Assembly (NCBI GenBank): GCA_041605955.1 | Contig: JBFIXI010000003.1 | Location: 22,988-86,987, forward strand | From: Acidimicrobiia bacterium | GTDB lineage: Bacteria; Actinomycetota; Acidimicrobiia; Spongiisociales; UBA5794 | DNA length: 64,000 bases | Reading direction: 5' to 3' | Shown here: one piece after another, positions 3,999 through 36,407 of the stretch | Position numbering within the stretch: the first letter of the stretch is position 1 | Layout: every line of letters starts with the position of its first letter | Program-made: the position numbers and the translations under genes | Notes under the pieces: generated by a model | The model's database searches: none | Seen by the model: only the letters and a program-made list of their open reading frames with translations | Told to the model about the DNA's origin: nothing

Positions 3999-4387
3999 GC
4001 TCCGCGGTGGTCGAGGCCGTCATCGGGCGGCGCGCCGCCAGCCCGCAACTCCCTGATCTGCAGCGCGGCAAAGGCGACGACGACCACGCTCACGGCGAGC
4101 AACCCGAGCCGACCTGCCGATGTCATGGCCGAGGGGAATCCGATCAGCACGATGCCCGCGGCCAGCACCCAGCCCAGATCAAGCACGATGGCGACCCACC
4201 ATCCGGATGGCGTACCGGTCGCGGCCAGTCGCCACAGAGTCAGCCCGTATCCAATCAGCAGCACCCCGGTCGACATCAGAAACCAAGCTTCGAGGCCCGT
4301 TGCCCCGTCCAGTAACGTCGCCCCGGCCAGCAGCGCGGCCCCGCTGCTCGCCGAGAAGGCTCCGTTGGCCTGCAGCACCCGTTCCAT
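3974..4387 (-). CDS. Small multi-TM membrane protein
   Basis: About four hydrophobic helices; GGAGG before ATG 4387; divergent from XRE regulator. Confidence 0.7.
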   Translation of the reverse strand: MERVLQANGAFSASSGAALLAGATLLDGATGLEAWFLMSTGVLLIGYGLTLWRLAATGTPSGWWVAIVLDLGWVLAAGIVLIGFPSAMTSAGRLGLLAVSVVVVAFAALQIRELRAGGAPPDDGLDHRGAQTPAGSP

Positions 4388-4449
4388 TGCGAGAACCTCC
4401 AATCCGCCGGCCGCCCGCACAGTCGCCACCATGACACCAAGTGATAATC

Positions 4450-4482
4450 AAGTCGATTACCTGGCTAGTAATAGATCGACTT
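4450..4482. promoter_or_regulatory. Palindromic operator in divergent promoter
   Basis: ATTAC-N7-GTAAT (4456-4472) nested with AAGTCGAT/ATCGACTT inverted repeat; AT-rich patch. Confidence 0.5.
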
Positions 4483-4506
4483 ATGTCATCCATCTATCAT
4501 CGAGGC

Positions 4507-5331
4507 ATGGCGGTCACGTTCGGCGAGAAGCTGCGGGATTGGCGCACCACCCGCCACCTGTCGCAGCTGGCGCTGGCCACCGAGGCCGGCGTCTCGCAGC
4601 GCCACATCAGCTTTCTCGAAACCGGCCGCGCCAAGCCCTCCCGAGAGATGGTCATCCATCTGGCGGCGGCCCTCGATATTCCTCTCCGCCAACGTAACGA
4701 TCTCCTGGGCAGCGCCGGATTTGCCCCGGCTTACACCGAGCGCAGTCCCGACGACAGCCAGCTGGCGGAGATCCGGGATGTGCTCGATCGGCTCCTCCTC
4801 GCCCATGAGCCCTATCCCGCCTACATCGTCGATCGATTGTGGAACCTGGTCGCCAGCAATCGGGTAGCGGCCGTGCTCCTCATAGCGGCAATCCCGCCCG
4901 GCGTCGATCCAGCCGACTTCGACGGCAACTTGCTGCGGCTCATGCTGCACCCGGCGGGGGCCCGCGGCGCAGTAGCAAACTGGGATGCAGCCGCCGCCGT
5001 ACTGCTGCGTCGCCTGACGCGCGAGGTAGCGGAACGACCAGGCGACGCCGAGCTCGCCGCCCTGCTCGCCGAGGCCCAGCAGTACGCGTCCGATGCCGGC
5101 GTCGATCTCACCGAACGGACTCCGCGCGCCGATGAGCTGCTGGTGCCTCTGATACTGCGCACACCGCTCGGGGAGATCGAGACCTTCACCACGATTGCGA
5201 CGATCGGCGCGGCGCACGATGTCACCTTGGAGGAGCTCCGTATCGAGACGCTGCTGCCGGCCACGCGCCACGCCGCCACCCTGTTGCACAGGTTGGCAGA
5301 GACGCCCGGAGCGGAGTTGGCCCCGACCTAG
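4507..5331 (+). CDS. XRE-family HTH regulator with MmyB-like ligand-binding domain
   Basis: LSQLALATEAGVSQRHISFLETGRAKPSR HTH; HEPYPA..VDRLWN..N C-terminal domain; leaderless -10 TATCAT 6 nt upstream. Confidence 0.9.
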   Translation: MAVTFGEKLRDWRTTRHLSQLALATEAGVSQRHISFLETGRAKPSREMVIHLAAALDIPLRQRNDLLGSAGFAPAYTERSPDDSQLAEIRDVLDRLLLAHEPYPAYIVDRLWNLVASNRVAAVLLIAAIPPGVDPADFDGNLLRLMLHPAGARGAVANWDAAAAVLLRRLTREVAERPGDAELAALLAEAQQYASDAGVDLTERTPRADELLVPLILRTPLGEIETFTTIATIGAAHDVTLEELRIETLLPATRHAATLLHRLAETPGAELAPT

Positions 5332-6842
5332 CCGAGCCCGGCCGCGTCGACAACGGCCCCGGCGCCGACGAGCTCCGCGGCCGCCGCCAGGTCGGGAGCC
5401 AGCACTCGATCGGCCTCCAACCGCGGCACCACCTGGCGCAGCCGGGCTACCACCCGACCCGTCACCGGCCCCGTTGGCGCCTCCCGCAGCTCGAGCGCCT
5501 GAGCTGCGGTGACCAGCTCGATGGCGAGCAGCCGCCGCAGGTTGGCCACGGCGCGCCGCAGTTTGCGAGCTGCGCCCCAGGCCATCGATACATGGTCTTC
5601 CTGCATTGCCGAGGTTGGCAGCGAGTCGACGCTGGCCGGCGCCGCCAGCCGGCGGTTCTCGGCGGCGATCGACGCCGCTGTGTACTGCGCCAACATCAGG
5701 CCGGACGAAACGCCTGGGTCCGCGGTGAGAAAAGCGGGAAGGCCGTGGGATCTCGCCGGATCGAGCATCCGATCGACCCGGCGTTCGGCGATCGCTCCCA
5801 CCTCCGCGCATGCAATCGCCAACAAATCACACGCCAGGCCGAGCGGGGCGGCGTGGAAGTTGCCGACCGACTCGATGCGGCCGTCCGGCGTGACGACCGG
5901 ATTGTCGATAGCGGACCGCATCTCGTTCTCGGCCACCTGCACCGCATGCGCCCAAGCGTCGCGGCCCGCGCCGTGCACCTGAGGGGCACACCGCAGCGAG
6001 TAGGCATCCTGAACACGGGGATCATCGTGTCGATGGGAGGCAACGATCGGCGACCCTTCCAGGGCCGCATAGATCCGGGCGGCCGCCACGGCTTGGCCCG
6101 GCTGAGGCCGCATTCCCACGACGTCGGCGGCGAAAGCCCGGTTGGTCCCGAGCAATGCCTCGACGCTCATTGCCGCCGTGATGTCGGCAGTATCGAGCAG
6201 CCGCTCCATGTCGGCGAGCGCCAGCACCAGCATGCCGAGCACGCCGTCGGTGCCGTTGATCAGCGCCAGGCCCTCCTTGGCTTCGAGCTCCAGCGGCTCC
6301 CAACCGCGGGCGGCGAGCGCGTCCGCGGCCGCCACATCGTGCCCGTCGATCTCGACACTGCCCTCTCCGAGGAGCGCGAGAGCGGCATGGGCGAGTGGAG
6401 CCAGGTCCCCGGAGGCGCCCAACGAGCCGAACTCGTAGACCGCCGGTGTCACCCCGGCGTTGAGCAGGTCGAGCATGCGCTCGACCACTAGTGGTCGAAT
6501 CCCAGATGCCCCCATGGCGAGGGTGCGAGCGCGCAGCAAGATCATGGCCCGCACCACCTCACGTTCGACGCGCCCCCCCATTCCCGCGGCGTGCGAGCGG
6601 ATCAGATTGCGTTGCAGCTCGCGGCGGCGAACCTCCGGTATGAACTGCAGGGCGAGGGCACCAAACCCAGTCGAGACTCCGTATACCGGTTCTCCGGAGG
6701 CGGCGAGCCGCTCGACAACCCGTCGGGATCGCTCCATGACGTGGCGCGCCTCGTCGCTCAAGGCGACGGTGGCCGCGTCGCGGGCGACGGCAACCACGTC
6801 GGCGCGAGTCAAACCCGTCCCAGTGAGCAGTACGTCACTCAT
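5328..6842 (-). CDS. hutH: Histidine ammonia-lyase
   Basis: VYGVSTGFG, MIO motif GSLGASGDLAPLAH, QDAYSLRCAPQVHG, QEDHVSM. Confidence 0.96.
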   Translation of the reverse strand: MSDVLLTGTGLTRADVVAVARDAATVALSDEARHVMERSRRVVERLAASGEPVYGVSTGFGALALQFIPEVRRRELQRNLIRSHAAGMGGRVEREVVRAMILLRARTLAMGASGIRPLVVERMLDLLNAGVTPAVYEFGSLGASGDLAPLAHAALALLGEGSVEIDGHDVAAADALAARGWEPLELEAKEGLALINGTDGVLGMLVLALADMERLLDTADITAAMSVEALLGTNRAFAADVVGMRPQPGQAVAAARIYAALEGSPIVASHRHDDPRVQDAYSLRCAPQVHGAGRDAWAHAVQVAENEMRSAIDNPVVTPDGRIESVGNFHAAPLGLACDLLAIACAEVGAIAERRVDRMLDPARSHGLPAFLTADPGVSSGLMLAQYTAASIAAENRRLAAPASVDSLPTSAMQEDHVSMAWGAARKLRRAVANLRRLLAIELVTAAQALELREAPTGPVTGRVVARLRQVVPRLEADRVLAPDLAAAAELVGAGAVVDAAGLG

Positions 6843-7425
6843 GCGGGCCGACCTGTGGCTCGGTGCGGGCGATGACGTCGGCGATGCGCTTCAGGTAGGT
6901 CGTCATTCCGTGCCGGCTGAAGTTGTCCCACGTCGCCATCGAGGTGGAGTCTTCCATGCGGTCGACGATGAGCCTGCCATTGAGATGATCCACCTCGTGC
7001 TGCACGGTGCCCGCCGTCAGGCCGCGATAGACGGCGGTGAACGGCGTCCCGTCGCGATCCCACGCAGACACTTCGATGCTCATGTGGCGGTCGAGGTCGC
7101 CGCGCAGAGGGACGCTCAGACATCCCTCATTGTTGAGCCACATCTCATCATCGAGCAGCTCGATCACCGGATTCACCAGCACCGTGAGCGGGATGGGCGG
7201 CTTGTACGGATAGCGCTCGTTGTGGTCTACCCCAATCACACAGATAGCGAGCAAGACGCCTATCTGATTGGCCGCGATCCCGGCACCGTCGGCGGCCGCC
7301 ATCGTCTCGATCATGTCGTCGATGGCCCCTTGGACGCCCGGGTCCGCCAGCTCAGCGGCCGCCACCCGGCGGGTGGGCCGGCGTAGAACCGGATCCCCGA
7401 TCTGGAGTATCGGCCTAACCGCCAT
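6835..7425 (-). CDS. def: Peptide deformylase family protein (inside hut operon)
   Basis: All three PDF motifs: GAGIAANQIG, EGCLS, QHEVDHLNG; overlaps hutI and hutH. Confidence 0.93.
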   Translation of the reverse strand: MAVRPILQIGDPVLRRPTRRVAAAELADPGVQGAIDDMIETMAAADGAGIAANQIGVLLAICVIGVDHNERYPYKPPIPLTVLVNPVIELLDDEMWLNNEGCLSVPLRGDLDRHMSIEVSAWDRDGTPFTAVYRGLTAGTVQHEVDHLNGRLIVDRMEDSTSMATWDNFSRHGMTTYLKRIADVIARTEPQVGPHE

Positions 7426-8644
7426 CGGAGCCCACTCCAGCAACCTGAGTGCCGCCGATCCACAGCCCGGCTAGCAGCGGCGCGCCGAACCAATAGCTGA
7501 GCGCCGCCGGCGAGACAACGTCCCATAGAGCCAGGTCGGCCCGCATTCCAACCGCAATCTCCCCCCGATCGTGGAGTCCGAGCGCCGCCGCCGCATGGCG
7601 CGTTGCGCCGTGGAGCGTCTCGGCAGGGGTCAAACCGAACCGAGTCGCCGCCAGTGCCATGGCCAACTGCAACGAGCCCACCGGCGCCGATCCGGGGTTG
7701 AGGTCGGTGGCGACGGCGATCCTGACGCCGGCAGCCCGCATCGCCTCGACCGGCGGTCGCAACGGCTCGTCCAGGAACGTAGCTGCCCCGGGGATGAGCA
7801 CGGCAACCGTTCCGGCCGCCGCCATCGCCTCCAAGCCGGCAGGAGCGGCATGCTCGAGGTGATCGGCGGACAGCGCCCCATGTTCGGCGGCGAGGGCTGC
7901 CCCGCCGCCGTCCGATAGCTGGTCGGCGTGCAGCCGCACGGGCAAGCCGGCGGCAGCGGCGGCTGCGAAGACCCGCCGCACCTGGTCTGGCGTGAACGCG
8001 ATCTTCTCGCAGAAGGCATCGACCGAATCGGCCAGGCCTTCGGCGGCGACGGCCGGGATCATCTCGCGACAGATGTGGTCGACGTAGCGGTCGGGGTCGT
8101 CGCGCAGCTCGTTGGGCACCGCATGGGCGCCCAGCAGCGAGGTGTGCACCGCTACGGGAAGCTCCCGACCGACCCGCCTCGCCACTCGGAGCATGCGCAG
8201 CTCGGTTGCCGTATCGAGCCCATAACCCGACTTGATCTCCACCGTGGCCACACCACTGGCCATCAGCCATCTCACCCTGGCGGCGGCCAAAGCGAACAGC
8301 TCCTCCTCCGCAGCCGCCCTGGTGGCGGTGACCGTCCGCCGGATGCCGCCGCCGGCGGCGGCGATGTCGGCGTACGAGGCTCCGCAGAGACGGCGTTCGA
8401 AGTCGACGAGGCGCTCGCCGGCGAACACCAAGTGGGTATGGCAGTCGATCAGCGCCGGCGTCAGCAACCGTCCGGCGGCGCTCACCGTCGCCGCCGGCTC
8501 GATCTTTGAGGACGGAGGCCCTACATAGGCGATGCGCCCATCGGCGATGCCCACCACGCCACCATCGAGCAGGCCGTAATCACCGGCCACCCCGACCGTC
8601 GCCACCATGGCGTCGACGACCAGGGTGTCGACGGCGACCGTCAC
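7415..8644 (-). CDS. hutI: Imidazolonepropionase
   Basis: LIDCHTH, EIKSGYGL, DAFCE, HADQL, SADHLE, ATDLNPGS; GTG overlaps hutF stop. Confidence 0.95.
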   Translation of the reverse strand: MTVAVDTLVVDAMVATVGVAGDYGLLDGGVVGIADGRIAYVGPPSSKIEPAATVSAAGRLLTPALIDCHTHLVFAGERLVDFERRLCGASYADIAAAGGGIRRTVTATRAAAEEELFALAAARVRWLMASGVATVEIKSGYGLDTATELRMLRVARRVGRELPVAVHTSLLGAHAVPNELRDDPDRYVDHICREMIPAVAAEGLADSVDAFCEKIAFTPDQVRRVFAAAAAAGLPVRLHADQLSDGGGAALAAEHGALSADHLEHAAPAGLEAMAAAGTVAVLIPGAATFLDEPLRPPVEAMRAAGVRIAVATDLNPGSAPVGSLQLAMALAATRFGLTPAETLHGATRHAAAALGLHDRGEIAVGMRADLALWDVVSPAALSYWFGAPLLAGLWIGGTQVAGVGSDGG

Positions 8645-9978
8645 TCCAGCACCGCAGCCAGTCCCCCGCCCAACGCTCCGGGGTCCCATGCGCCGGCGTG
8701 GCGACCGTGCGCCACTATCTGCCGACCACCGACGAACACGTCGGCCACGTCGTCACGGGTGGCGGCGAATATCACCTCCGCCAGCGAGCTGTCCGGCCCG
8801 ATCCCGGCGAGTCGATACGAGCTCGTGTCGACCACGATGAAATCGGCCGGGGCCCCCGGTTCGAGCCTGCCCAGGCCGCTCCAGCCGAGCGCATCGCCAC
8901 CGTTGCGACCGGCCGCATCCACCAGACTTGCCGGGGCGTGAACCCCACGCGCCTGGGTGCGCAGCCGATCGTGCAGCTCGACACCCCTGGCTTCTTCGAA
9001 CATGTCGACTACGGCGTTGGAATCCGTGCCCAAGCTGAGAGGAACCCCAGCTCGGGCGAGCTCGGCTGCCGGCCCGAGGCCGTCTCCGAGATCCCGCTCT
9101 GTTGTCGGGCACAGACAGACGGCCGCGCCCGACGCGGCGAGCAGCTCGATGTCGCGTTCGCTGAGGTGGGTGGCGTGGATTGCCGTTGCCCCCGGGGCCA
9201 GCACCCCGGTGTCGACCAGCAGCTCAGTCGGCGTCACGCCATGCTCGGCGATGCACGCCTCGTTCTCGGCGGGCTGCTCGCTGACGTGTACGTGAACCGG
9301 CAAGCCGAGCTCGTCCGCCACCCGGCGAATCGTCCCCAGGTCCTTGGCGGGCACCGCGCGAACGCTGTGGGCGGCGACGGCGAGTTGCACCAGCGGCGCA
9401 TCGGCGACGTCGGCGGCCAGCACCCGCACCCGGTCGGCCCACGCCTCCACCGAGCCATCGCTGAAGCGCGCCTGAGGGGGCCGCAGCGGAGCACCGGCGA
9501 CGCTTCCAGTCAGATAGCAAGTGTCGATGAGGGTGAGGCGGATCCCCGCTTCTGCGGCCGCCTGCATCAGCGCATGGCCCATCGCGCTCGGATTCGGGTA
9601 CCGCTCGCCGCCGGCGGCGTGGTGGAGATAGTGGAACTCGCCCACCGCGGTGATGCCGCCACTGAGCATCTCGGCGAAGACACCGGCGGCGAGGCGGCGA
9701 TACGTGTCGGGATAGAGCTCGTCCGCCACGCGGTACATGAGATCGCGCCACGCCCAGAAGTCACCTCCTTGCTCGTGCGTTCTCCCCCGCAAGGCGCGGT
9801 GAAAGGCGTGCGAGTGGGTATTGACGAAGGCGGGCAGCACTATGCCGCGCAGGATCGGGGCGGCAAATGTGCTGTCGGTCCGCAAGGCGGAGAACTTGCC
9901 GTCCTCGATTTCGATCAGCACGTCGCGGGTGAGGCCGGGTCCGCCCAACCAGGCGGCCTGGGCGCGCAGCCGCCTCAC
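8641..9978 (-). CDS. hutF: Formimidoylglutamate deiminase
   Basis: [55 protein letters not shown]. Confidence 0.94.
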
Positions 9979-11639
9979 TGCTGCTCCATGGGCAAGTCGA
10001 TACCGCGGGCCGAAGCGACGCGCTTGGCGGCTTCGTAACCGGCGTCGGCGTGGCGCATGACACCCGTGCCCGGGTCCGAGGTGAGCACCCTGGACAGCTT
10101 GGCATCTGCCAACTCGCTTCCGTCCGCCACCGCAACCATGCCGGCGTGGATCGAGCGACCTATACCCACACCGCCTCCGTGGTGGAGGCTCACCCACGTC
10201 GCCCCGGCGGCTACGTTGACCATCGCATTCAGCAGGGGCCAATCGGCGATGGCGTCGGACCCGTCGGCCATGTCTTCGGTCTCCCGATATGGAGAGGCCA
10301 CCGAGCCCGAATCGAGGTGGTCGCGGCCGATGACGATGGGGGCGGACACTTCTCCGGTGCGCACCATCTCGTTGAATCGCAAACCCAACCGAGCTCGCTC
10401 TCCGTACCCCAGCCAGCAGATCCGGGCGGGCAAGCCTTGGAAGGCGACTCGTTCAGAAGCCAGCTTGATCCAGCGCGCCAACGCCTCGTCGTCGGGGAAC
10501 TCCTCGAGCACGGCTAGGTCGGTGGCGGCGATGTCGGCAGGGTCCCCGCTCAGGGCGACCCACCGAAACGGGCCTTTGCCTTCACAGAACAAAGGGCGTA
10601 CGTAGGCGGGGAGAAAGCCGGGATAGTCGAAGGCCCGCTCGAACCCACCGAGGCGGGCTTCGGTCCGCAGCGAGTTCCCGTAGTCGAATACCTCCGCTCC
10701 TCGGTCCATGAATCCGACCATGGCGGCACAGTGGCGTGCCATCGACACCCGCGCCCGACGAACCAGCTCCTCGGTGTTCTCCCCTCGCATCCTCTCGGCC
10801 GCCTCCGGAGTGAGGTCCACCGGCACATAGGTGAGCGGATCGTGCGCCGAGGTCTGATCGGTGACGATGTCGGCCGGGAACCCCATCTCGAGGAGACGAG
10901 GAACCACATCGGCTGCGTTGCCCACAACGCCGACGCTGAGGCCGTCGCCGGCGTCCCGCGCTTCGACACAGCGCGCCACCGCCGCGTCGAGGTCGACGGC
11001 GACCTCGTCGAGATAGCTGGTATCGAGCCGGCGCCGGACCCTCTCCGGGTCGACCTCGACGCACAGCGCCACTCCCCCGTTCATCGTGATCGCCAGTGGT
11101 TGGGCCCCTCCCATGCCGCCGAGCCCGGAGGTCAGCGTGATGGTGCCCGCCAAGCTGCCGCCGAATCGTTTGTGAGCAATCGCGGCAAATGTCTCGTACG
11201 TGCCCTGGAGAATGCCCTGGGTCCCGATGTAGATCCATGAGCCGGCAGTCATCTGGCCGTACATGGTCAGGCCGCGTCCCTCGAGCCGACGGAATTCCTC
11301 CCAAGTCGCCCACTCCGGCACCAGGTTCGAGTTGGCCAGCAACACCCGCGGCGCCCACTCGTTGGTGCGGAACACCCCGACCGGCTTGCCCGACTGGATC
11401 AGCAGCGTCTCGTCGTCGCCGAGGCGGCGCAGTGTGGCCACGATGGCATCGAAGGCATCCCACGACCTGGCTGCCTTCCCGGTGCCGCCGTAGACCACCA
11501 GGTCGTCGGGACGCTCGGCAACTTCCGGGTCGAGATTGTTCATCAGCATCCGCAAGGCAGCCTCTTGTGGCCACCCCCTGCAGGAGAGCTCACTCCCGCG
11601 CGGGGCCCGCACCAGACGTGGCGACCCTGATCCGCTCAT
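9975..11639 (-). CDS. hutU: Urocanate hydratase
   Basis: [51 protein letters not shown]. Confidence 0.97.
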
Positions 11640-11736
11640 GTCCCCATTGTGGCGCGGCGCCGCCCAATGTTCTCGTTGGGCCCAGCTCGGAGACACTCGC
11701 ACCCAACTATCACCGGCCGACGTTTACGGTAGTGAC

Positions 11737-12348
11737 ATGTCGGATTCCCATTCGGAAGGGCTCCTAGGGGCCGCGTCGGGCGACTTCGAGGAGCTCGTGG
11801 AGCGCGCCCGGCAGGGCTCAGGTGATGCGCTGCGGGCTCTTTACGACTCGCTGAGCACCGAAGTGGCCGGATTTCTCCGAGTGCGGGGCGCCGCTGATGT
11901 GGGCGCCGCCACCAACGAGGTCTTCCACCGGGCATTCACTGCGCTGCACCGCTTCTCCGGGACTGAGTCCGGCTTTCGCTCCTGGATATTCACCATCGCC
12001 AACAACCTCCTGATCGATGAGCACCGCAAACGGGTCCGCCGCCCCCAGCTGGGTGCCGGGCTCGACTCGGCGGGCCACGAGGTGGCCGGCGGAGACGTGG
12101 AGGACGAGGCGATGGCTCGCCTCACCCACGCCGACATCGGCCGGTTGCTCGATGGACTGACCCCCGGCCAGCGCGACGTGCTGCACCTGCGCCTCATCGC
12201 CGGCTTGACCTTGTCCGAGACTGCTGCGGTGCTGGGTCGTCCAGTTGGCGCCGTGAAGTCACTCCAGCATCGTGCCATCGCAGCGCTGCGCGACAAACTC
12301 GACGCCGGCGCGTATCCGTTGACCCCATCGTTACGTTCTCAGAGGTGA
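11737..12348 (+). CDS. ECF-type RNA polymerase sigma factor
   Basis: Region 2 FRSWIFTIANNLLIDEHR; region 4 QRDVLHLR...GAVKSLQHRA; -10 TACGGT 6 nt before ATG. Confidence 0.92.
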   Translation: MSDSHSEGLLGAASGDFEELVERARQGSGDALRALYDSLSTEVAGFLRVRGAADVGAATNEVFHRAFTALHRFSGTESGFRSWIFTIANNLLIDEHRKRVRRPQLGAGLDSAGHEVAGGDVEDEAMARLTHADIGRLLDGLTPGQRDVLHLRLIAGLTLSETAAVLGRPVGAVKSLQHRAIAALRDKLDAGAYPLTPSLRSQR

Positions 12349-12349
12349 T

Positions 12350-13690
12350 ATGAGCGACCACGCTTCCCCCCGCCGCCCCGGCTCCTCCCCTTCGGACGAC
12401 GCCGGCCAGCCCGAAGCCGAACGCGGAGCTTCTCCGTTCGAAGCATCCGACCGTGGCGCCGGCGACCAACGCGGCGACTTCCTCGACGAGCTGGTTGCGG
12501 CGGACCCGGCGAATCGACGCCTCGCCGGGATCTTGCGATCATGGCGGGGAGCGTCCGCCGCAGAGCGGGTCAGCCCCGATGCTCGCTTACAGGCGTTGTT
12601 CTCCGGCGGCCCGCCGCCCGCCGTCCGCCCGCGGTGGCGCCAATGGGTGCAGCGCCCGGCCGTCGCTTTCGCGGCCAGCTTCGCGGCCGTGCTGGCCATC
12701 GGAATCAGTGCGCTCGCCTTGGTGGCGCCGGATGGCGAGTCGGCGACGACCGTGGCCTCGCCGACGTCGTCGCTGGCCGCGGCCGACGTATCCGCCGGCG
12801 CGGCCCAGATCACGTTGCCGGAGGATCTCAGCGAACAGGCCGACTACGCCACGTGTGTCGTCGACCAGCTCCACGCTTGGTTCACATCTGGCCTCGACGC
12901 GGCGCAAGCACCTCAGCTGGTGGACAACTGCGGACTCCCGCCGATCCCCGACTTGGGCCCGGACGCGGCCGCATATCGTCAAGAGCTGCAGACCTGGGCC
13001 AGCTGTGTCGCCGAGGAGGCCGAGGCGCTGATGCCCCAGCTGGCCGACATGTTCCGCCGCCAGGACGGCGCCGATGAGCTCGATCCGGCGGGCACCATCG
13101 AGAGCGAATGCGGCAATCCTCCGGATCCGCGCGACTTCGGGATCGAGCTGCCGTCCATCGACTGGGAGGCCCTCGATCCCTCCGTCCTCGAGCTGGGACC
13201 GCTCTATCTCGGGCAGTGGCGCATCGAGGACTTCGACCTGGAAGGGCTCCTGGGCGAGCTGCCTCCCGGGCTGCTCCCCGAGGATTTCGACTTGGAGGAA
13301 TTCGAACGCAAGTTGGACCGGCTCGAGCTGGAGGACTGCGATCTGCCTGAGCCGCCGCCCGATATCGAGAGCCTCGAGGACCTCCACCAGCTGGAACTAG
13401 GGTCGCTGTTCGCCGGGTTTGCCGCATGCGGCCTCGATGAGCTGCTGCCCGGCCTGCTGGGGGATGGCGAGCTCGATCTCGACCAGCTACTCGGCCAGCT
13501 GGAGTCGATGATGGGGAGCCTGCAATTCGAGGGGTTGGCCGATCTCGAGGGGTTGGCCGATCTCGAAGGGTTGGCCGATCTCGAGGGGTTGGCCGATCTC
13601 GATCTCGAGCAGCTGCTGCAAAGGCTGCTCGAGGGGCACGACCTGGACCTGGAGTCACTCTTCGCGGACCGCGCCACGGGGGACTCCTGA
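12350..13690 (+). CDS. Single-pass membrane protein, putative anti-sigma, with Cys-containing acidic C-terminal domain
   Basis: 1 nt after sigma stop; one TM (AVAFAASFAAVLAIGISALALVA); repeated C...C-G-x-PP units; Asp/Glu/Leu-rich tail. Confidence 0.65.
   Translation: MSDHASPRRPGSSPSDDAGQPEAERGASPFEASDRGAGDQRGDFLDELVAADPANRRLAGILRSWRGASAAERVSPDARLQALFSGGPPPAVRPRWRQWVQRPAVAFAASFAAVLAIGISALALVAPDGESATTVASPTSSLAAADVSAGAAQITLPEDLSEQADYATCVVDQLHAWFTSGLDAAQAPQLVDNCGLPPIPDLGPDAAAYRQELQTWASCVAEEAEALMPQLADMFRRQDGADELDPAGTIESECGNPPDPRDFGIELPSIDWEALDPSVLELGPLYLGQWRIEDFDLEGLLGELPPGLLPEDFDLEEFERKLDRLELEDCDLPEPPPDIESLEDLHQLELGSLFAGFAACGLDELLPGLLGDGELDLDQLLGQLESMMGSLQFEGLADLEGLADLEGLADLEGLADLDLEQLLQRLLEGHDLDLESLFADRATGDS
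13527..13598 (+). repeat. In-frame 18-nt tandem repeat x4 (EGLADL)
   Basis: TCGAGGGGTTGGCCGATC x4, one copy with a G>A change. Confidence 0.95.
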
Positions 13691-13702
13691 GCCCCGAGCC
13701 GG

Positions 13703-15364
13703 CTACTGCTGGGGATCGCCGTAGATGAAGGAGCGGGTCGGTGGCTCCGGCCGTGGTTCCTCCTCCGCGTCCATCTCGTCGCTGCGGCCCAGCACCTCGC
13801 GCATTGCGGGGTAGTTGTAGCCGAACGCCACCAGGACGACGCCGGCTACGAAGAAGCTGATCGTCCTTCCGACTGCGTTGATCAGGATCAAGTCGGCGGT
13901 CAGGAGCTTGCCGACCGCGATGAGCACCGTCACCAGACCGGCTTGGATCGCCGGTCGCGAACCGATACGAAGCCCCAACGAAGCGGCGCCGGCTGCCATC
14001 AGTATCCAGCTGGCCGTGGTGAGCGCCGCCCCGTTCTGCACCCCGATGAATGCTTCGGCGAACCAGACGCCAGCGGCGGCGAACGCCACTCCACCCAGCA
14101 CACTGCGGACCTGCGGATGTTCGTCGAGCAAGGCGGTGGCCGCGATGAACCCTACGATGATCGCATGCGCTACCAGCTGAGAGGCTGTGACCCGGACATC
14201 GGCCGCAAACGCCTCGAACAGCTCGGCGGAGACCCATCCCAGCACGGGCAGGGCGATCAAACCGCCGACGGCGGTGAGCACAGGAGAGCCCGCGCGGCGT
14301 CCCGCCACCAAGGAGGCAAAGGCTTGACCGGCCAGCGCCAGCTGGCGAGCCGAGCCGTTGAGCAGCAGGACGGATGCAGTCGCCAATAGCGCCGAGGCGG
14401 CCACGAAATGCGTCAGCCCGAGGACGGCGTCGCTGCTCCTCACCGCCGAGCCGATGATCCCCACCGCCACGGCGGCGCCCAGGCTGACATATCCGATCTG
14501 CATCGGCAGCAAGTCCCAGATCGCAGCCGTGGCGACGACGGCGAGCCCGGGGACCCAGATGACGTTGCCCAGCTCAGCGCCGCGGAAGAAGCCGGCCCAG
14601 TGGTGATCAACCGAATGCCGCGACACCTGCACCGGACGACCCAGTTGCAGCCGCACCACAGGCACCAGCCAGAGCGCCAGCGCCACGATGGTCACGCCCA
14701 GCTGGACGATTAGCTGGGCCTCGTCGATGACTCGCATCCGGTCGATGATCGAGCCGTAGGTAGCGACGGCCAGCACGCCTGAGGTGACCAGCAGCGATCC
14801 CCAGCCATTGAAGAAGTACACGGCTAGTGCAGCCAACAGGAGCAGGGTGGCATAAATTGCGTAGGCGCTCAGCGAGTCGGCGGCCCCCCCGCCGGGGGCC
14901 CCGTCACCGAGAGACAGCACGAAGGGCGCCGCCAACCCGCCGATGAGCCCGATAGCGGCCAGCGCGGAATCGCCCCGCCGAGCCGCCAGCCAGAACGACA
15001 GCGCAGTGACGATGACCGTCGCGGCCATCGCAGTCTCCCACGTCAAGACGTCGAACACCTGATGGCCGGCGAATACGGAGAGGAAGATCACGGCGAGCCC
15101 GGCTCCCTGCAGGCTCTGGCCGAACACGGGCCGCCCCAGGTACGTGAACAAACCGAATGCAATCAGCCCGATGCCGACGAATATGCCGCCGGCCACGCGC
15201 AACGGGGGGGTGAACAGCCCGTGATCGATCGCGATGCCCATAGCGAACGCCACCGCCAGGAAGATCATCACGAGGCCACCCCACTTGAACGCAGTCTCCT
15301 CGAGACGGTCCATGAGGCTGACCGGGCCGGAAGGGGTCTGCTGCGAGTTCGGTTTGGTGCTCAT
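13703..15364 (-). CDS. DUF2339-like polytopic membrane protein
   Basis: Many TM helices; N-terminal pattern GG..IFLA...PPLRV..G...GQSLQGAG..VIF; -10 TACGTT 6 nt before ATG. Confidence 0.75.
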   Translation of the reverse strand: MSTKPNSQQTPSGPVSLMDRLEETAFKWGGLVMIFLAVAFAMGIAIDHGLFTPPLRVAGGIFVGIGLIAFGLFTYLGRPVFGQSLQGAGLAVIFLSVFAGHQVFDVLTWETAMAATVIVTALSFWLAARRGDSALAAIGLIGGLAAPFVLSLGDGAPGGGAADSLSAYAIYATLLLLAALAVYFFNGWGSLLVTSGVLAVATYGSIIDRMRVIDEAQLIVQLGVTIVALALWLVPVVRLQLGRPVQVSRHSVDHHWAGFFRGAELGNVIWVPGLAVVATAAIWDLLPMQIGYVSLGAAVAVGIIGSAVRSSDAVLGLTHFVAASALLATASVLLLNGSARQLALAGQAFASLVAGRRAGSPVLTAVGGLIALPVLGWVSAELFEAFAADVRVTASQLVAHAIIVGFIAATALLDEHPQVRSVLGGVAFAAAGVWFAEAFIGVQNGAALTTASWILMAAGAASLGLRIGSRPAIQAGLVTVLIAVGKLLTADLILINAVGRTISFFVAGVVLVAFGYNYPAMREVLGRSDEMDAEEEPRPEPPTRSFIYGDPQQ

Positions 15365-21117: not shown

Positions 21118-22590
21118 CTACTCGCACGACTGGAACTCGTCGTTGCCGGGACCGCCGTAGCAAACGTCCTGTCCGGCCCCGGCAAGCAAGACGTCGCTTC
21201 CGGCCCCGCCTATCAGGACGTCGTCGCCCTTGGCGCCGGCGATGTAGTCCGCTCCCCCCTCGCCGTACAGGCGGTCGGCTCCCTTGTCTCCCAGGATGAA
21301 GTCGTCGCCGTACCCGCCGTTGATCATGTCGTGACCATCGTTGCCCATGAGCTTGTCCTTGCCGATGCCACCGTAGATGCGGTCGCGGCCCGGACCGCCG
21401 CACAGGTAATCCCCCTTCTCCTTGCCGATGAGTAAGTCGTTGCCGCCGAGTCCCACAATGACGTCCACCCCGTCGGTGCCGACCAATACATCGTCGCCGT
21501 CCGTGCCGACGATCGTCGCCGCTCTCCCCCCACAGGTTGGGCCTCCGGGTGGGGGCGGCGGCGGGGGCGGCGGCGGAACCGCTCCGTCGTAATCCAGACC
21601 CACCTGCCACACCGGGGCCCCCACCCTCTCGGTAACGGTTATGTAGGCGCCGCCGTCGGGCAAGATGGCGATGGCCTCTCCCGGAGTCTTCGGAGCAATG
21701 CAGGCGCTCACCGGGTGGGCGGCCAAGGCGGCGAAGACCGACCCGGCGGGATCGCGCAACCAGGCCCAGGTCTCGGCGCCGTTCTTGGCGATGACCACCT
21801 TGCCGTCCAGCGAGATGTCGGCGCCGGTGATCGGTGAGTACCTGTTTTCGTAACGCTGCTTGACCGCAGTCCGGGGCCGGGCGGTGATGGTCCTGCCCTC
21901 GACGAGGTCTTCCTGGTCGATCTTGTAGACCCAACCCATGTCCGGTTCGCCATCGATGGTCTGCACTTGCTTCTCGAAGATGACGAGGTCATCGGTTATC
22001 GGGTCGACGATGAGTCCCTCGGCGTTGCGCCGCCAATGGGTTCCGGGTTGGTTGGGATTCTCGTAGGCATAGACGAATGTCTCGATCTGGCCATCGGGAA
22101 TCGTGATCGTGTTCCCGGCCCCCGGAGGGGTGGGCTCGGCGATCCGGTAGATGCGGACGGTGGCTCGACCGTGCCCGTTGTTGCCTATGTCGGCAATGTA
22201 GAGATAGTCGAGATTGGCGTTGGGGCCCGGGCCGATGGCGATGTCTTCGAAGTCGCTGGCGGGCCGGTTCCCGAGCACCACGGTTCCCCGATCGGCGCCG
22301 GCTTGGGTCATGGCGAAGATGCGGGCGCTGTCCCCGCTGTCGTTGTGGAGCCAGAAGCGATTGTTGTGTTGGCGCGAGGCGACCAAGCCCGACGCCTCGT
22401 TGATCGCGTTGCGCTGCAGGTTGCCGATGATGGCGGCATTGGGGAATTCAGGGCAGCTTTGGGCGGCTGCCTGGCTCGGCGCGGCGCTCCCTACCGCTAC
22501 CAGTGAGGTCAGCAGTGCGAATGCGAGCGCGCCGGCACGAATCCGGGTTTGGCGTCTAGTAACGATGAAAGGTCGGTGTGGAGCGTTCAA
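21118..22590 (-). CDS. Secreted protein: propeller-like domain, poly-Pro linker, hemolysin-type Ca-binding repeats
   Basis: Signal peptide; EASGL..S, HNDSGD, DFEDIA, ADIGNN motifs; many GGxGxD repeats. Confidence 0.8.
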   Translation of the reverse strand: MNAPHRPFIVTRRQTRIRAGALAFALLTSLVAVGSAAPSQAAAQSCPEFPNAAIIGNLQRNAINEASGLVASRQHNNRFWLHNDSGDSARIFAMTQAGADRGTVVLGNRPASDFEDIAIGPGPNANLDYLYIADIGNNGHGRATVRIYRIAEPTPPGAGNTITIPDGQIETFVYAYENPNQPGTHWRRNAEGLIVDPITDDLVIFEKQVQTIDGEPDMGWVYKIDQEDLVEGRTITARPRTAVKQRYENRYSPITGADISLDGKVVIAKNGAETWAWLRDPAGSVFAALAAHPVSACIAPKTPGEAIAILPDGGAYITVTERVGAPVWQVGLDYDGAVPPPPPPPPPPGGPTCGGRAATIVGTDGDDVLVGTDGVDVIVGLGGNDLLIGKEKGDYLCGGPGRDRIYGGIGKDKLMGNDGHDMINGGYGDDFILGDKGADRLYGEGGADYIAGAKGDDVLIGGAGSDVLLAGAGQDVCYGGPGNDEFQSCE

Positions 22591-26676: not shown

Positions 26677-29283
26677 TCAGGCCCCAAAGGTTACGAAGGC
26701 TCTGCAGGCGACGGCTTCCGGATCGTCGTAGTCCAGCGCAGGAAATGCGCCCGCTAACGCAGCCGGGACCGAGTCTCCGATGCGGAGTCGCTCGTGCACG
26801 CCGACCATGAGATCGATGGTGGTCAGCTGGTCGGGAACCAGCCCGACGTTGGCAACAACCGAGCGAGTGCCCTGCCCGAGCAGGGACGTGGCCAGACCCA
26901 TGACCTCGTGACCCCCGGTGGTGCTGTTGGCCCCGGCGTCGCATGCAGAAAACACCATTACTCCCGGAGCCATCTGGAGCGCTTCCAGGTCGTACACGGT
27001 TAGCGGGCCGTCGCTCATCTCCAACGAAGAGAACAGTGGGTTGTCGGCCCGGAAGCTGCCGTGGCAGGCGACGTGGGCGATCACCGCACCGTCGATGGCC
27101 CGGGCGGCGGCATCGGCGCTGGGCTCGACCAGCTCGACCGAGCGGGCGTACACCGCAGCCACCCGCCGCACCTCCTCAATCGAATGGTCGAGGCGGGGAC
27201 CGGCGATCACGCTGGCGGCAGAGTCGCGTCCGGCGGAGAAGGGTTCTCGGGCCCGGCGCGCCCACAGCGCGGCCGAAGGAGACACCACCACGCGAGCCTG
27301 AGCCAGCGACGGCAAGAGCGACCACGGCAGCGCGTACAGCGGGCCGACCGGCACCACCACCAAGTGCTGGCTGCGCAACCGAAGTGGAGCAATCAGCATC
27401 TCGTCGAGGCGGGCGGTGGCGGCGGCAACCACCATTAGGGCCGCCGCCTGCGACTCGGCGGAGCCGGCGCCGGCGGCGATACGCCGCAGGGCCGCCGTCA
27501 CGGAGTCCAACTCGTGACGGACGGCGGCGATGGGTCCCAGCGTGAACTTGTGAGCTCGACCGCCGCTGAGCCGCACCGCCACCAGCTCGTGTCCTTCCAC
27601 CTCACCGAACTCGATCAGGGCGGCGTCACCGAGCAGATCGAGAATCTCGCCCGCCGACGACACCCCGATGCGGCCGGCCGTGGAGCCCGGGGCCCGCAAC
27701 GCCACATCGCGTACCTTCTCTTGCAGCCGCCATCGGCGCGTCGACAATGCGTGGGTAGGGGCGCCATTGAGCGTCGCCCGACGCAGTTCTGCGTCGGCCT
27801 CGCGAAACTGCATCAGATGAGAGGCCAAGGCCTCGTCGCCGGTGGGGCCCTGCGGCTGGCTGCGCATCGCTCCGGCCCGGGTCAGCTCCATCCAGTAGAA
27901 GAGCCGGCGCGCCGAGCCGGACTCGCCGGCCAGGCGGAGGCCGATCTTGGCAAGCTCGGTTCCGTAGCCGGACACATGAAGGCGCGCCATCGTGCCTCCC
28001 AGCGTCGCCTGGTAATGGTCCAGCACTCGCAGCCCAGCTCGGGCGGCTGCCGCCGCCCCCTTCTTGTCTTCCTCATGGAGCCGCAGCCGCGCAACGGCCA
28101 CCCAACCCTGGGCTCGCAGCTCTACCGGGCCGGCTTGGCGCCCCATCGCCGCCTCCTCGAGATACGTGCGACACGCCTCGAAGTCGCCGGCTTCGGTGGC
28201 GATGGTTGCCGCCAGCAGGCGGGCATGGAACGCTTCTGTCTGCAAGCCGGATCGATCCAATGCTTCGACCACACGCCTGATGGCGGGCAGATCAGCCCGC
28301 TCGAGCTCCCCGACCGCGGCCCGCGCTCGCATCTCGAGGTAGTCCGCAAACGCCTCCCATCCGAAGCGGCCCTGCTCAGCCATGAGCCTGCGGGCGGCGC
28401 GGGCGGTCTCCGCCGCGGTCGCTGCATCGTTGGCGAGGAGCGACGCCTGCGCCGCCTGCAGCAGGGCATCGGCGTAGCTGGCCTGCAGGCCTTTGGCCCG
28501 CAGCTCATGGGCAGCCTTGAGCGCCACCTGCTTGGCGTCCGCCGCCATGTGCGCCGCCAGCAATGCCTCCGCCCGGTCACACCACAGCTGTCCCAGTGAC
28601 ATGCCCAACTCGGCGAACGCCGCTTCGGCCTCATCGAGGTAGTTCAGCGCTGCCGGGAAGTCGCCGCCGCGCAGCGCCAGCCATCCGAGGTTCTGATCGG
28701 CGTGCGCCATCGCAGTCCGATGCGCCAGCGATCCGTAGCCTGACTTGGCCGCTTGCAGGTCGGAGCGAGCGGCCCCGACGTCTCCCTCATACGCGTTGAG
28801 CAGTCCCCGGTTCGTCATGGCATGCGCCCACCACATCACCTCGCCGGCGGCGTCGAGCGCAGTGATGGCCTCATCGAGATCGGCCCGAGCCAAGGCGAAG
28901 TTCCCCAACCGATAATGAATACCGCCCCGTTGCGCTTGGGCCATTGCCCGCTTGGCCCCGGTCAGCGAGTCAAAGGCGACATCGATTGCTTCGAGCGAGG
29001 CGGCTTGCTCTCCACTCCACGCCAGGATGCCCGCCAGAGTCATCTGCGTCTCCCCGATCACCTCGACCTCAGCGGATTGCACAGCGGCCTCGAGCGCCGC
29101 TTCGAGGTCGGCGCGGGCCGCGCGCAGATTGCCGAGATTCGCTTGCGCCAGGCCGGTGACCCGCATGGCTCGCGCCCGGTCGGCCGTCGCAAGCTCGCCC
29201 GTCAGTATCGACTCCGCCCGCTCCACGGCGGCGACAGGCTCCGAGCTGGCCAGTGCCAGCAACTCGTCGAATACCTCTTCCAT
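26677..29283 (-). CDS. TPR-CHAT (caspase-HetF-associated) protease
   Basis: Long TPR-like helical N-terminus; CHAT motifs LVVVPVGPLYALPWSLL, catalytic His HVACHG, catalytic Cys FSACD, AFVTFG end. Confidence 0.92.
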   Translation of the reverse strand: MEEVFDELLALASSEPVAAVERAESILTGELATADRARAMRVTGLAQANLGNLRAARADLEAALEAAVQSAEVEVIGETQMTLAGILAWSGEQAASLEAIDVAFDSLTGAKRAMAQAQRGGIHYRLGNFALARADLDEAITALDAAGEVMWWAHAMTNRGLLNAYEGDVGAARSDLQAAKSGYGSLAHRTAMAHADQNLGWLALRGGDFPAALNYLDEAEAAFAELGMSLGQLWCDRAEALLAAHMAADAKQVALKAAHELRAKGLQASYADALLQAAQASLLANDAATAAETARAARRLMAEQGRFGWEAFADYLEMRARAAVGELERADLPAIRRVVEALDRSGLQTEAFHARLLAATIATEAGDFEACRTYLEEAAMGRQAGPVELRAQGWVAVARLRLHEEDKKGAAAAARAGLRVLDHYQATLGGTMARLHVSGYGTELAKIGLRLAGESGSARRLFYWMELTRAGAMRSQPQGPTGDEALASHLMQFREADAELRRATLNGAPTHALSTRRWRLQEKVRDVALRAPGSTAGRIGVSSAGEILDLLGDAALIEFGEVEGHELVAVRLSGGRAHKFTLGPIAAVRHELDSVTAALRRIAAGAGSAESQAAALMVVAAATARLDEMLIAPLRLRSQHLVVVPVGPLYALPWSLLPSLAQARVVVSPSAALWARRAREPFSAGRDSAASVIAGPRLDHSIEEVRRVAAVYARSVELVEPSADAAARAIDGAVIAHVACHGSFRADNPLFSSLEMSDGPLTVYDLEALQMAPGVMVFSACDAGANSTTGGHEVMGLATSLLGQGTRSVVANVGLVPDQLTTIDLMVGVHERLRIGDSVPAALAGAFPALDYDDPEAVACRAFVTFGA

Positions 29284-29386
29284 ACACTCGCCCCTGCGTG
29301 AGCCGCCTCCGATTCTCACAGACCGTGGAGCCCACCGTCGACAGCCGAAGCCGCCTTCCGGCTAGTTTGATGAGGCCCGGGAAGCG

Positions 29387-29445: not shown

Positions 29446-30765
29446 ATGGCGAAGCAGGACTCTTACAGCAGCCAAGGCGATGGCGAGGTGACCGACAGCA
29501 CCGAGGCCGGAAAGGTCAGAGCTCGGCTCGAGGACATCAAGCGTCGCGGTGGGCGGGCCGAGTACGCGTTCACTCCTGGCGACGAGCTGACCGGGCGACC
29601 CCCCGTCTTCTACGTGCCGGATCAGCTGGTGACCACGCTGGAGCACGCCAACCTGGTGCATCGGCTGCTGGAGGAATGGCACGGCAAGTGTGGAGGCCCC
29701 CGACCGCTGGTGGAGTACGACAACGAACTGGTCGCGTTCACCGTCGAGGGCGACTCGCTGCATGTGGCCACCGCGATCAAGCAGGCTGCGGCCAAGCTCC
29801 CCGATGCCCCTCGGGAGCTCCCCGTGGGCCCGCTTCACATCTTGACCCCGGCACCTCAGCCGAAGATCGGTCCCGGGGACGATCCGGCCCCGGCATCGGC
29901 TCGGGAACGACTGAGGACCGGGCCCGCGGTCGGTGCGGCTGCCCCAGTTGCCGTGGTCGACACTGGACTATGGCTGGATCCCCGCCACGGCCTCACGGCA
30001 ACCGTCGCTCCCGGCGGTGAGGAGCGCATCGACGACAATCCCCAGGACGGGTTCGTCGACTTCTACGGCTCGGGCCACGGCGGCTTCATCGCCGGGGTCG
30101 TCGAGAACAATGCGCCGGGCGCTGCGGTGATTGTCCGCAACGCGTTTGGCCCGAGCGGGATCACGGAACAGACCGTGATCAACGAGGTCGACGCCGCCTT
30201 GGCCACCAGCGATATGGTGGTGGTGAATCTGTCCTTGGGCAGCTACGAGAAAGACGATGGCTGCGATCGCGTTGAGTTGGTGGCGCTGCGGACCGCCATG
30301 CGTCGATGGCGGGATAAGCGGCCCGGGTGTCTGCTGGTGGCCGCCGCCGGTAACGACGCCACCCCACACCCGTTCTTTCCGGCGGGATTCGCCGCCGAGC
30401 CCGAGTTCGCCGCAATGGTGGTGAGCGTGGGTGCGTTAGGCCGCCCTGCGGACAAGGTGGGAATCCACAGCGCAGCGGCCGCGTTCAGCAACTTTGGGCC
30501 TTGGGTCACCGCCTGGGCACCGGGTGAGCACATCGTCAGCGAGTATCCGGACGACATGAAGTTCGCCTACATGGATGGAGGCGGCAACGTCGCCGGCACC
30601 GCCACGTTCACCGACGGCTTGGCTCGCTGGTCCGGGACGTCGTTCGCTGCGCCGTTCGTCGCCGCCGAGATCATCCGCGAGATGCGCAACGGCGAATCTC
30701 CCCGGGAGACCTGGCAACGTATCCGTGGCTCCAGCCCATTCGTGATCTTCTGGCCTAGCTGGTAA
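29446..30765 (+). CDS. S8 subtilisin-like serine peptidase, no signal peptide
   Basis: Triad VVDTG / GHGGFIAG / SGTSFAAP; VNLSLG; oxyanion AAAGN; hydrophilic N-terminus; GAGGAGG RBS. Confidence 0.93.
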   Translation: MAKQDSYSSQGDGEVTDSTEAGKVRARLEDIKRRGGRAEYAFTPGDELTGRPPVFYVPDQLVTTLEHANLVHRLLEEWHGKCGGPRPLVEYDNELVAFTVEGDSLHVATAIKQAAAKLPDAPRELPVGPLHILTPAPQPKIGPGDDPAPASARERLRTGPAVGAAAPVAVVDTGLWLDPRHGLTATVAPGGEERIDDNPQDGFVDFYGSGHGGFIAGVVENNAPGAAVIVRNAFGPSGITEQTVINEVDAALATSDMVVVNLSLGSYEKDDGCDRVELVALRTAMRRWRDKRPGCLLVAAAGNDATPHPFFPAGFAAEPEFAAMVVSVGALGRPADKVGIHSAAAAFSNFGPWVTAWAPGEHIVSEYPDDMKFAYMDGGGNVAGTATFTDGLARWSGTSFAAPFVAAEIIREMRNGESPRETWQRIRGSSPFVIFWPSW

Positions 30766-35830: not shown

Positions 35831-36280
35831 TCACTGTTTGGCGGAGTGAGCGGCGACGGCCTCAGCGACGAAGTCGTCGACCGGCAAGGCGGCGACAGCG
35901 TCGCCGATCACATCGAATGGCACGTCGTCGAGTTTGCGAAACCGGACACAAGATTGTCCGACGTCGAGGCGTTTCCCGGTTGCCTTGTAGGCATCGAGGA
36001 ATCCTTCTCTCCTTCCTGAGTCTTGATAGATCCCACTCAAATAGACCGCGAAATGGTTCTTCTGCGACGCCAGGGCGGCGTACATCAGCGGCTTCCCGTT
36101 GTAGGTGTCGGCATAGGTCTCGAGAGGAACCTCGTACGTGATCATCCCGAAGTTCATGCCTTCCTCATAGCCGTCCGGGAGACGCTCGAGGATCAACTTG
36201 CGCAACTCGCTGAGCGCCTCGAATCGATCCTCGGGTAGCTGGGCTAGATATTCCTCCGGCGTCGTTGCATCGCTTCTCAT
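35831..36280 (-). CDS. DUF1801-like protein
   Basis: EEYLAQLPEDR, LPDGYEEGM.FGMI.Y.VP, LASQKN, GQSCVRF. Confidence 0.82.
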   Translation of the reverse strand: MRSDATTPEEYLAQLPEDRFEALSELRKLILERLPDGYEEGMNFGMITYEVPLETYADTYNGKPLMYAALASQKNHFAVYLSGIYQDSGRREGFLDAYKATGKRLDVGQSCVRFRKLDDVPFDVIGDAVAALPVDDFVAEAVAAHSAKQ

Positions 36281-36340
36281 ATTGTCCTCCACCCCGCATG
36301 CGCGATTGGCTTACGCTGCCGATCCCCCGATCGTAGATAG

Positions 36341-36393: not shown

Positions 36394-36407
36394 TCAGGAG
36401 GACGACC

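Follow-up and report, generated by a model that had tools for sequence, protein, structure and literature searches.

A peptide deformylase paralog in the hutF-type histidine-catabolism operon of an Acidimicrobiia bacterium: a putative N-formylglutamate deformylase

Which enzyme acts after HutF in a histidine-catabolism (hut) operon that contains no hutG? HutF converts formimidoylglutamate to N-formyl-L-glutamate and ammonia, and in the Pseudomonas-type five-step pathway the next step belongs to HutG (N-formylglutamate amidohydrolase or deformylase; FGase family, PF05013, TIGR02017, EC 3.5.1.68). The question is raised by an operon in a window of 64,000 nucleotides from an Acidimicrobiia bacterium (GenBank assembly GCA_041605955.1, contig JBFIXI010000003.1, positions 22,988 to 86,987; the coordinates of this operon and its neighbours are those of the window), in which a gene for a peptide deformylase (PDF) paralog, the hut-PDF in the following, is enclosed by hut genes. 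PDFs hydrolyse N-formyl amides, and their chemistry is specific for such amides. The intact catalytic centre and apparently remodelled pocket of the hut-PDF, its linkage to hut genes, its co-occurrence with and fusion to HutF, and the lack of FGase and M20 candidates in this genome lead us to propose that it is probably a PDF-fold N-formylglutamate deformylase, which would share with HutG the reaction and the place after HutF while belonging to an unrelated family. Five open reading frames follow each other on the minus strand:

9975-11639, minus strand: hutU, urocanate hydratase, first in the operon (TIGR01228, 920.9 bits, cut-off 375; three urocanase Pfam domains)
8641-9978, minus strand: hutF, formimidoylglutamate deiminase, GTG start (NF006681, 576.3 bits, cut-off 362; TIGR02022, 460.6 bits, cut-off 413)
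7415-8644, minus strand: hutI, imidazolonepropionase, GTG start (TIGR01224, 435.4 bits, cut-off 298)
6835-7425, minus strand: def, the hut-linked PDF paralog, 196 amino acids (NF001159, 144.5 bits, cut-off 125; PF01327, 140.6 bits)
5328-6842, minus strand: hutH, histidine ammonia-lyase, last in the operon (NF006871, 666 bits, cut-off 524; TIGR01225, 630 bits, cut-off 539)

The gene names follow NCBIfam and Pfam profile matches, every one of which exceeds its curated cut-off, and hutH, hutU, hutI and hutF are found as in a five-step (HutF-type) operon, co-oriented, above the equivalog cut-offs and with overlapping junctions. The overlap is 4 nucleotides (GTGA) at both the hutU/hutF and the hutF/hutI junction, where the GTG start of the downstream gene lies over the stop of the upstream one, 11 nucleotides at the hutI/def junction (ATGGCGGTTAG) and 8 nucleotides at the def/hutH junction (ATGAGTGA). 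An earlier sequence-only reading of this DNA had given exactly this gene order with these overlaps between 5328 and 11639, had described intact GxGxAAxQ, EGCLS and HExDH motifs in the PDF and had noted the lack of hutG; the junction DNA agrees with it to the nucleotide, the three motifs are present as G47-A-G-I-A-A-N-Q54, E100-G-C-L-S104 and H143-E-V-D-H147, and no FGase, M20 or arginase-type gene lies inside the operon. The hutU reading frame is open up to a GTG at 11702, and since the profile match begins at residue 31 of this long frame, Met22 (position 11639) is the likely start. A consensus scan of 4300-12500 for promoters and terminators returned 0 sites of either kind, which is uninformative for an actinobacterium with 68% G+C. 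The five genes would form one translationally coupled operon for a five-step pathway leading through HutH, HutU, HutI and HutF to a deformylase.

By its profile matches the hut-PDF is a member of the PDF family, as it exceeds the cut-offs of PF01327 (22.8 bits), NF001159 and TIGR00079 (110.4 bits against 103.95), and it matches PDF models only and none of the FGase family to which HutG belongs. G47, G49, A51, A52, Q54, E100-S104, H143, E144 and H147, which are conserved in at least 95% of 81 PDFs, are all present, and the catalytic and metal-binding residues are invariant in a family alignment of 38 sequences. The AlphaFold2 model is confident (pLDDT 93.5, pTM 0.90), and the Foldseek listing of ranks 1-50, which has gaps, comprises 46 chains, each of them a PDF matched with a probability of 1.00. 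The best structural matches include PDFs of Burkholderia, Leptospira, Pseudomonas aeruginosa (type 1b) and Xanthomonas as well as plant and human mitochondrial PDF1A, with target TM-scores of 0.80-0.95 and 36-43% identity, and a sequence search of the PDB agrees with them (E-value 7e-34 for the PDFs with an enlarged CD loop described below). A predicted complex of HutF with the hut-PDF received a score of 0.00, which is evidence neither for nor against an association.

The hut-PDF is not the housekeeping PDF of this bacterium. Two PDF genes were found by profile search of the contigs of its own assembly (4.16 Mb in 149 contigs), and the stop codon of the other, def1 on contig C4, overlaps the start of fmt by 4 nucleotides, whereas the hut-PDF gene does not adjoin fmt. 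The overlap of def1 with fmt is the classical housekeeping arrangement, and the hut copy is thus an extra paralog; the def1 product is 31-40% identical to the members of the hut-PDF clade described below. The sequence-only reading, which had proposed to search for such a separate def near fmt, considered its proposal refuted if a canonical hutG were encoded elsewhere or if the linkage of hut and def were unique to this genome. Neither was found. A genome-wide search gave 0 matches both to PF05013 (FGase) and to TIGR01879 (M20 hydantoinase/carbamoylase-type amidase). There is also no formimidoylglutamase in this genome; two arginase-family genes are present, the better of which is an agmatinase (TIGR01230, 208 bits against a cut-off of 174; formimidoylglutamase model, 151.5 bits against 229). 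No known enzyme was thus found for the step after HutF, and the absence of a known N-formylglutamate deformylase from this genome is probable, if not proven in an assembly that is 95.65% complete.

The linkage, in turn, is widespread in relatives and has been kept despite rearrangement of the genes. A protein search with the hut-PDF returned thousands of PDFs, of which the best 120 are 57-100% identical and about 190 amino acids long; the named members among these 120 are labelled just "peptide deformylase" and stem mainly from Acidimicrobiia. In 80 genomic loci, which were searched with the Hut proteins of the window, def1 and Fmt, hut genes stand beside the PDF gene in 15. All 15 belong to the 21 loci whose identity is 49% or higher, and there is no such case among the 59 loci of lower identity. 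Conversely, fmt is found beside the PDF gene in 6 of the 80 loci, all of them with lower-identity PDFs. The hut-linked loci show five gene orders:

hutU-F-I-def-H: this window, L007
hutH-U-def-F-I: L010, L014, L017, L019, L022, L023 and others
hutH-U-F-I-def: L021
hutF-def: L006, L008
hutF-hutH-def: L013, a gammaproteobacterial metagenome-assembled genome (MAG)

The carriers of linked loci are Acidimicrobiia, Solirubrobacterales, unclassified Actinomycetota and this single gammaproteobacterial MAG. Four carriers from Solirubrobacterales all have at least two PDFs, and none of them has an FGase-family gene or an NF006770 match above the cut-off; beyond the Acidimicrobiia sample described below, at least two PDF matches were found in 5 of 5 further genomes. 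In one Solirubrobacterales hut-def locus (L062), the matches of hutU, of def and of hutF are all broken into several fragments, and this locus is either a decaying operon or part of an indel-rich long-read contig. No recurring neighbour was seen around four unlinked Myxococcota members of the clade (L009, L012, L018, L024) and two non-clade loci (L026, L028), where the choice of frame in high-G+C DNA may be wrong.

Co-occurrence with hutF was analyzed in a sample of 301 Acidimicrobiia genomes, including three unpublished ones (G254, G275, G212), none of which was positive; a hut-type PDF was called at E <= 1e-35, and the matches are 47-100% identical. A hutF gene above the cut-off is present in 40 of the 301 genomes, and a split copy in one more (G038). 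The hut-type PDF occurs in 32 genomes, 31 of which also have hutF, and in only 1 of the 260 hutF-negative genomes. In 29 of the 31 genomes with both, the two genes lie on one contig within 5 kb of each other: the PDF gene directly follows hutF in 8 genomes and directly precedes it in 10, and it is one gene off in 7 and about 3 kb off in 4. The two genes are on different contigs in the remaining 2 genomes, with one of them at a contig end. As in the genome studied here, the hut copy is never the sole PDF, as each of the other 31 carriers has at least two PDF matches.

A further line of evidence is provided by fusions. In a search of longer proteins, PDF domains 41-57% identical to the hut-PDF were found in proteins that also contain urocanase or amidohydrolase domains, and the amidohydrolase part of the fused proteins is HutF according to NCBIfam. 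The order is PDF-HutF in P0154 and P0157, the latter from the transcriptome of the chrysophyte Paraphysomonas, and HutF-PDF in P0148 and P0158, with complete PDF domains and plausible linkers; the P0148 cluster has five members, three of them full length, the P0158 cluster has three, and several contigs are involved. Y74, K75, G139 and T140 are kept in P0154, P0157 and P0148, whereas P0158 has Ala in place of G139, and three of these four fused domains retain W166. All four form one subclade within the hut-PDF clade (Shimodaira-Hasegawa-like approximate likelihood ratio test, SH-aLRT, 100); judged by this tree, the fusions are one lineage with two domain orders and not four independent events. 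PDFs that are fused to Fmt, by contrast, are just 28-42% identical to the query. Four other candidates were discarded because they look like frameshifts in assemblies: in P0121 and P0124 (HutU-PDF) the HutU match extends only to position 422-424 of the 545 positions of the profile, with about 130 residues of unmatched sequence behind it, in P0142 (PDF-HutF-HutI) the C-terminal PDF helix is lost to a sequence rich in Arg, Ala and Gly, and P0144 is without EGCLS. Hut-type PDF domains were also seen in four predicted proteins of 385-447 amino acids with a PhyH dioxygenase domain (PF05721; P0123, P0128, P0131, P0132; 53-55% identical, with RYPYKP, GLTAGT and TW). The PDF part of these begins with Val, and they may represent either two genes merged by the calling of open reading frames or a second genomic context of the clade.

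A FastTree phylogeny of 81 PDFs unites the 15 hut-linked proteins with six unlinked Myxococcota proteins in one clade (support 100), and an IQ-TREE analysis of 51 rows recovers this clade with an SH-aLRT value of 99.9. The clade is marked by Y74, K/R75, T140, T165, W166, F169 and L26, each shared by at least 85% of its members and by no more than 15% of the 60 PDFs outside it. In the alignment of 38 sequences Y74, R108, T165 and F169 are invariant, and A48, K75, G139, T140 and W166 are conserved in at least 90%. In the PDF of Leptospira interrogans (LiPDF), the RYP motif contains a Tyr that acts as a gate to the pocket. Alignment to the numbering of E. coli PDF equates A48 with Ile44, N98/N99 with positions 86/87, R108 with Arg97, L136 with Leu125, G139 with Ile128 and T140 with Cys129. 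The S1' pocket residues Ile44, Ile86, Leu125, Ile128 and Cys129 would thus correspond to A48, N98 (an Ile elsewhere in the clade), L136, G139 and T140, a lining that by alignment appears smaller or more polar. PMC12690207 describes the P1' pocket as hydrophobic, with positions 86 and 125 (E. coli numbering) in its lining, and assigns the binding of the inhibitor backbone to Arg97. Similarly, PMC3101196 describes for the plant enzyme AtPDF1B that the pocket owes its shape to Ile42 (E. coli Ile44) and Ile130 and that the CD loop is involved in its closure.

The most likely function of the PDF paralog would be the hydrolysis of the N-formyl amide of the HutF product to formate and glutamate. It would employ the standard PDF machinery, with a metal on Cys102, His143 and His147, Glu144 as general base and recognition of the formyl group by Gly49, Gln54 and Leu103. 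The pocket seems to be remodelled, with the small or polar residues A48, G139 and T140 at the positions of E. coli Ile44, Ile128 and Cys129, a conserved Tyr-Lys pair (Y74-K75) in the enlarged CD loop and a conserved Thr-Trp pair (T165-W166) opening the C-terminal helix; these residues might accept a free amino acid with two carboxylates instead of a formylmethionine (fMet) peptide. The non-orthologous replacement of HutG put forward in the sequence-only reading is thus supported by linkage, co-occurrence, fusions and the lack of a known HutG, whereas the activity on N-formylglutamate is what we infer from the operon position, the co-occurrence with hutF and the fusions. The substrate and the roles assigned to the clade-specific residues are likewise predictions.

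The known proteins most similar to the hut-PDF are PDFs with an enlarged CD loop, namely LiPDF (1SV2, 1Y6H), the PDF of Burkholderia xenovorans (5KOB), the class I type b PDF of P. aeruginosa (6JFC) and Xoo1075 of Xanthomonas oryzae (4NT8). They share its fold (target TM-score 0.90-0.95, root-mean-square deviation 1.0-2.4 A, 40-43% identity) and its three motifs, and the RYP-containing insertion between the strands is found in them as well. In contrast to what we propose for the hut-PDF clade, these enzymes act on fMet-peptides, and they differ from it in having D/E/Q-A in place of Y74-K75, F-H-A-R-V instead of L-T-A-G-T before QHE and a Trp in place of N99, and in lacking the T165-W166 pair. 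Another comparison is offered by Def2 of Vibrio cholerae, which like the hut-PDF is a second, fmt-unlinked PDF copy with pocket substitutions; it is described in PMC12690207 as an active PDF in which a change of Arg97 to Tyr lowers the susceptibility to actinonin. The hut-PDF differs from Def2 in keeping the equivalent of Arg97 (the invariant R108) and in residing in a catabolic operon rather than in integrons or plasmids. The position beside hutF in a hut cluster that lacks FGase is also shared by a gene of another fold and family: in genome G047, which has no hut-PDF, an M20 gene of the "allantoate amidohydrolase" type (NF006770, 507 bits against a cut-off of 372) lies directly upstream of hutF, the only case of an M20 amidohydrolase beside hutF among the hutF genomes, and its role in hut clusters is likewise putative. 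Such an M20 gene beside hutF is presumably the actinobacterial substitute for HutG in Streptomyces hut clusters.

Several observations weigh against the proposed function. Ten of the 41 hutF genomes lack this PDF, and nine of these have no adjacent candidate, with hutF located in a hut context in five of the nine; a linked deformylase is thus not obligatory, and the argument of the sequence-only reading from the need for a deformylase in this pathway loses some of its force, as nine related hutF genomes show no candidate for it. FGase-family genes, none of them near hut genes, occur in 9 of the 41 hutF genomes, 7 of 31 with and 2 of 10 without the hut-PDF, so that the expected mutual exclusion of the two was not seen at the Pfam level. 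On the HutG equivalog, the FGase-family genes of these nine genomes reach 21-46 bits against a cut-off of 278.75, and TIGR02017 is above the cut-off in none of 11 genomes carrying an FGase-family gene. In G094, a 96%-complete assembly, hutF was not found. The gammaproteobacterial MAG has an FGase-family gene elsewhere. The six Myxococcota members of the clade keep the signature residues and have no hut gene within 6 kb; five of these six genomes were searched, and hutU was found in all five and an FGase-family gene in four (one of these genes reaching 214.7 bits on the Pfam model and 149.8 on the HutG equivalog against 278.75), and hutF was not found in two. Moreover, the genomes compared are related to each other, and the counts therefore overstate the independence of the observations. 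Y74, K75 and W166 are predicted to lie at or near the substrate pocket from the alignment and from general structural knowledge. Finally, all PDF motifs are intact, including the updated motif set given in PMC12690207, and the nearest solved structures are genuine PDFs with 40-43% identity; ordinary PDF activity is therefore conceivable. As observations on individual loci, the hut clusters L086, L088, L090, L091 and L093 (in G214, G082, G295, G186 and G262) contain hutF and have no PDF, FGase or M20 neighbour, and in L088 a gene for a winged helix-turn-helix and methyltransferase protein (8454-9503) is located between hutI and hutF.

These points have to be weighed together with other functions that the hut-PDF might have. 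It could be an ordinary accessory PDF that acts on nascent fMet-peptides, a back-up or inhibitor-tolerant copy co-transcribed with the hut genes by chance. The intact catalytic motifs and metal ligands, the scores above the NCBIfam PDF cut-offs, the active PDFs among the closest structures and the Myxococcota members outside hut clusters would all fit this explanation, as would the statements in PMC12690207 that accessory PDFs are common and that no more than 58% of species have def and fmt as neighbours. We nevertheless regard it as unlikely, because chance or hitch-hiking does not account for hutF in 31 of 32 carriers and for the PDF in only 1 of 260 hutF-negative genomes, for an adjacency kept through at least four gene orders in two actinobacterial classes, for HutF fusions in both domain orders or for systematic substitutions at pocket positions.

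A second alternative leaves the observed association with histidine catabolism untouched and concerns the predicted substrate: the hut-PDF, as a deformylase or amidohydrolase, might not be specific for N-formylglutamate but act on another small molecule related to this pathway; N-formyl amino acids in general, formimidoylglutamate or formylisoglutamine are candidates. The carriers in which hutF was not found would be explained in this way, that is, two of the five Myxococcota genomes, all of which have hutU, and G094, in whose locus L095 (6272-11311; order hutH-hutU-def-hutI) the PDF gene is followed directly by a true hutI (TIGR01224, 345 bits). However, HutF is the tightest partner of the PDF, as the two genes directly adjoin each other in 18 of the 29 Acidimicrobiia genomes with linkage and HutF is also the partner in the fusions, and the HutF product is exactly an N-formyl amide, the type of substrate on which PDFs act; we thus consider this alternative rather improbable. 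A non-catalytic role as binding or regulatory subunit of the Hut enzymes, to which the natural fusions with HutF could be taken to point as a sign of physical association, is very improbable, as the invariance of the catalytic and metal-binding residues in the 38-sequence alignment would be unexpected for a non-enzymatic subunit. Apart from these considerations, L095 contains a second, weaker hutI-like gene with a ClpX-type zinc finger (13309-14685).

If the hut-PDF is an N-formylglutamate deformylase, as we think probable, the novelty would likely consist in a known enzyme fold that has acquired a metabolic substrate and replaces a non-homologous enzyme. With regard to the clade as a whole, we lean towards regarding it as a third, structurally unrelated class of N-formylglutamate deformylases built on the PDF fold and as the first PDF-family enzymes with a free metabolite as physiological substrate. 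This class would extend across Acidimicrobiia, Thermoleophilia, Myxococcota and some Gammaproteobacteria and would include, in chrysophyte-like eukaryotes, a fusion with HutF into a bifunctional enzyme that leads from formimidoylglutamate to glutamate, and the Tyr-Lys pair of the CD loop together with the Thr-Trp pair with which the C-terminal helix begins might represent the switch from peptide to amino-acid specificity. In the literature covered, which is that outside subscription journals, we found no paper tying a PDF-family protein to N-formylglutamate or hut genes, and the terms hut, urocan and formylglutamate have 0 occurrences in the text and one supplementary file of the 2025 survey of accessory PDFs (PMC12690207), its other supplements lying outside this count. 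Should the proposed function hold, a hole in the pathway would be filled, as many Actinomycetota hut operons have HutF and no HutG, and automatic reconstructions call histidine catabolism incomplete or miss the step that yields glutamate and formate. It would also mean that intermediary metabolism has recruited the PDF scaffold, which has been studied almost exclusively as a target of antibiotics. In databases all these proteins carry the name "peptide deformylase", with the consequence that surveys of accessory PDFs count hut-PDFs as translation enzymes; the signature residues offer a simple rule for their re-annotation.

The operon has the following neighbours:

4441-5331, plus strand: MmyB-like helix-turn-helix regulator (PF17765 MLTR_LBD, 97.4 bits; PF01381 HTH_3, 44 bits), convergent with hutH
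11737-12348, plus strand: extracytoplasmic function (ECF) sigma factor (TIGR02937, 76.3 bits, cut-off 42.9; Sigma70_r2 and r4), start Met68 as read from the translation

The gene of the MmyB-like protein, a possible local regulator, and hutH overlap tail to tail by 4 nucleotides, and no GntR-type HutC is encoded near the operon. The ECF sigma factor gene is divergent from hutU at a distance of about 97 bp. Directly 3' of it, a very acidic protein of 446 amino acids with LADLEG repeats and without Pfam match is encoded at 12350-13690 (plus strand), which is possibly the anti-sigma partner of the ECF sigma factor. At a distance of 25-35 kb from the operon, and without linkage to hut genes, there are a gene for a PF04199 "putative cyclase" (36198-37055, plus strand) and one for the formate-dehydrogenase accessory protein FdhD (45492-46289, minus strand); the PF04199 family includes kynurenine formamidases. 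The window further contains a gene for an RTX-repeat protein (21118-22590) and one for a CHAT-domain protein of 880 amino acids (26677-29319, minus strand), which is divergent from a subtilase gene (29446-30765, plus strand).

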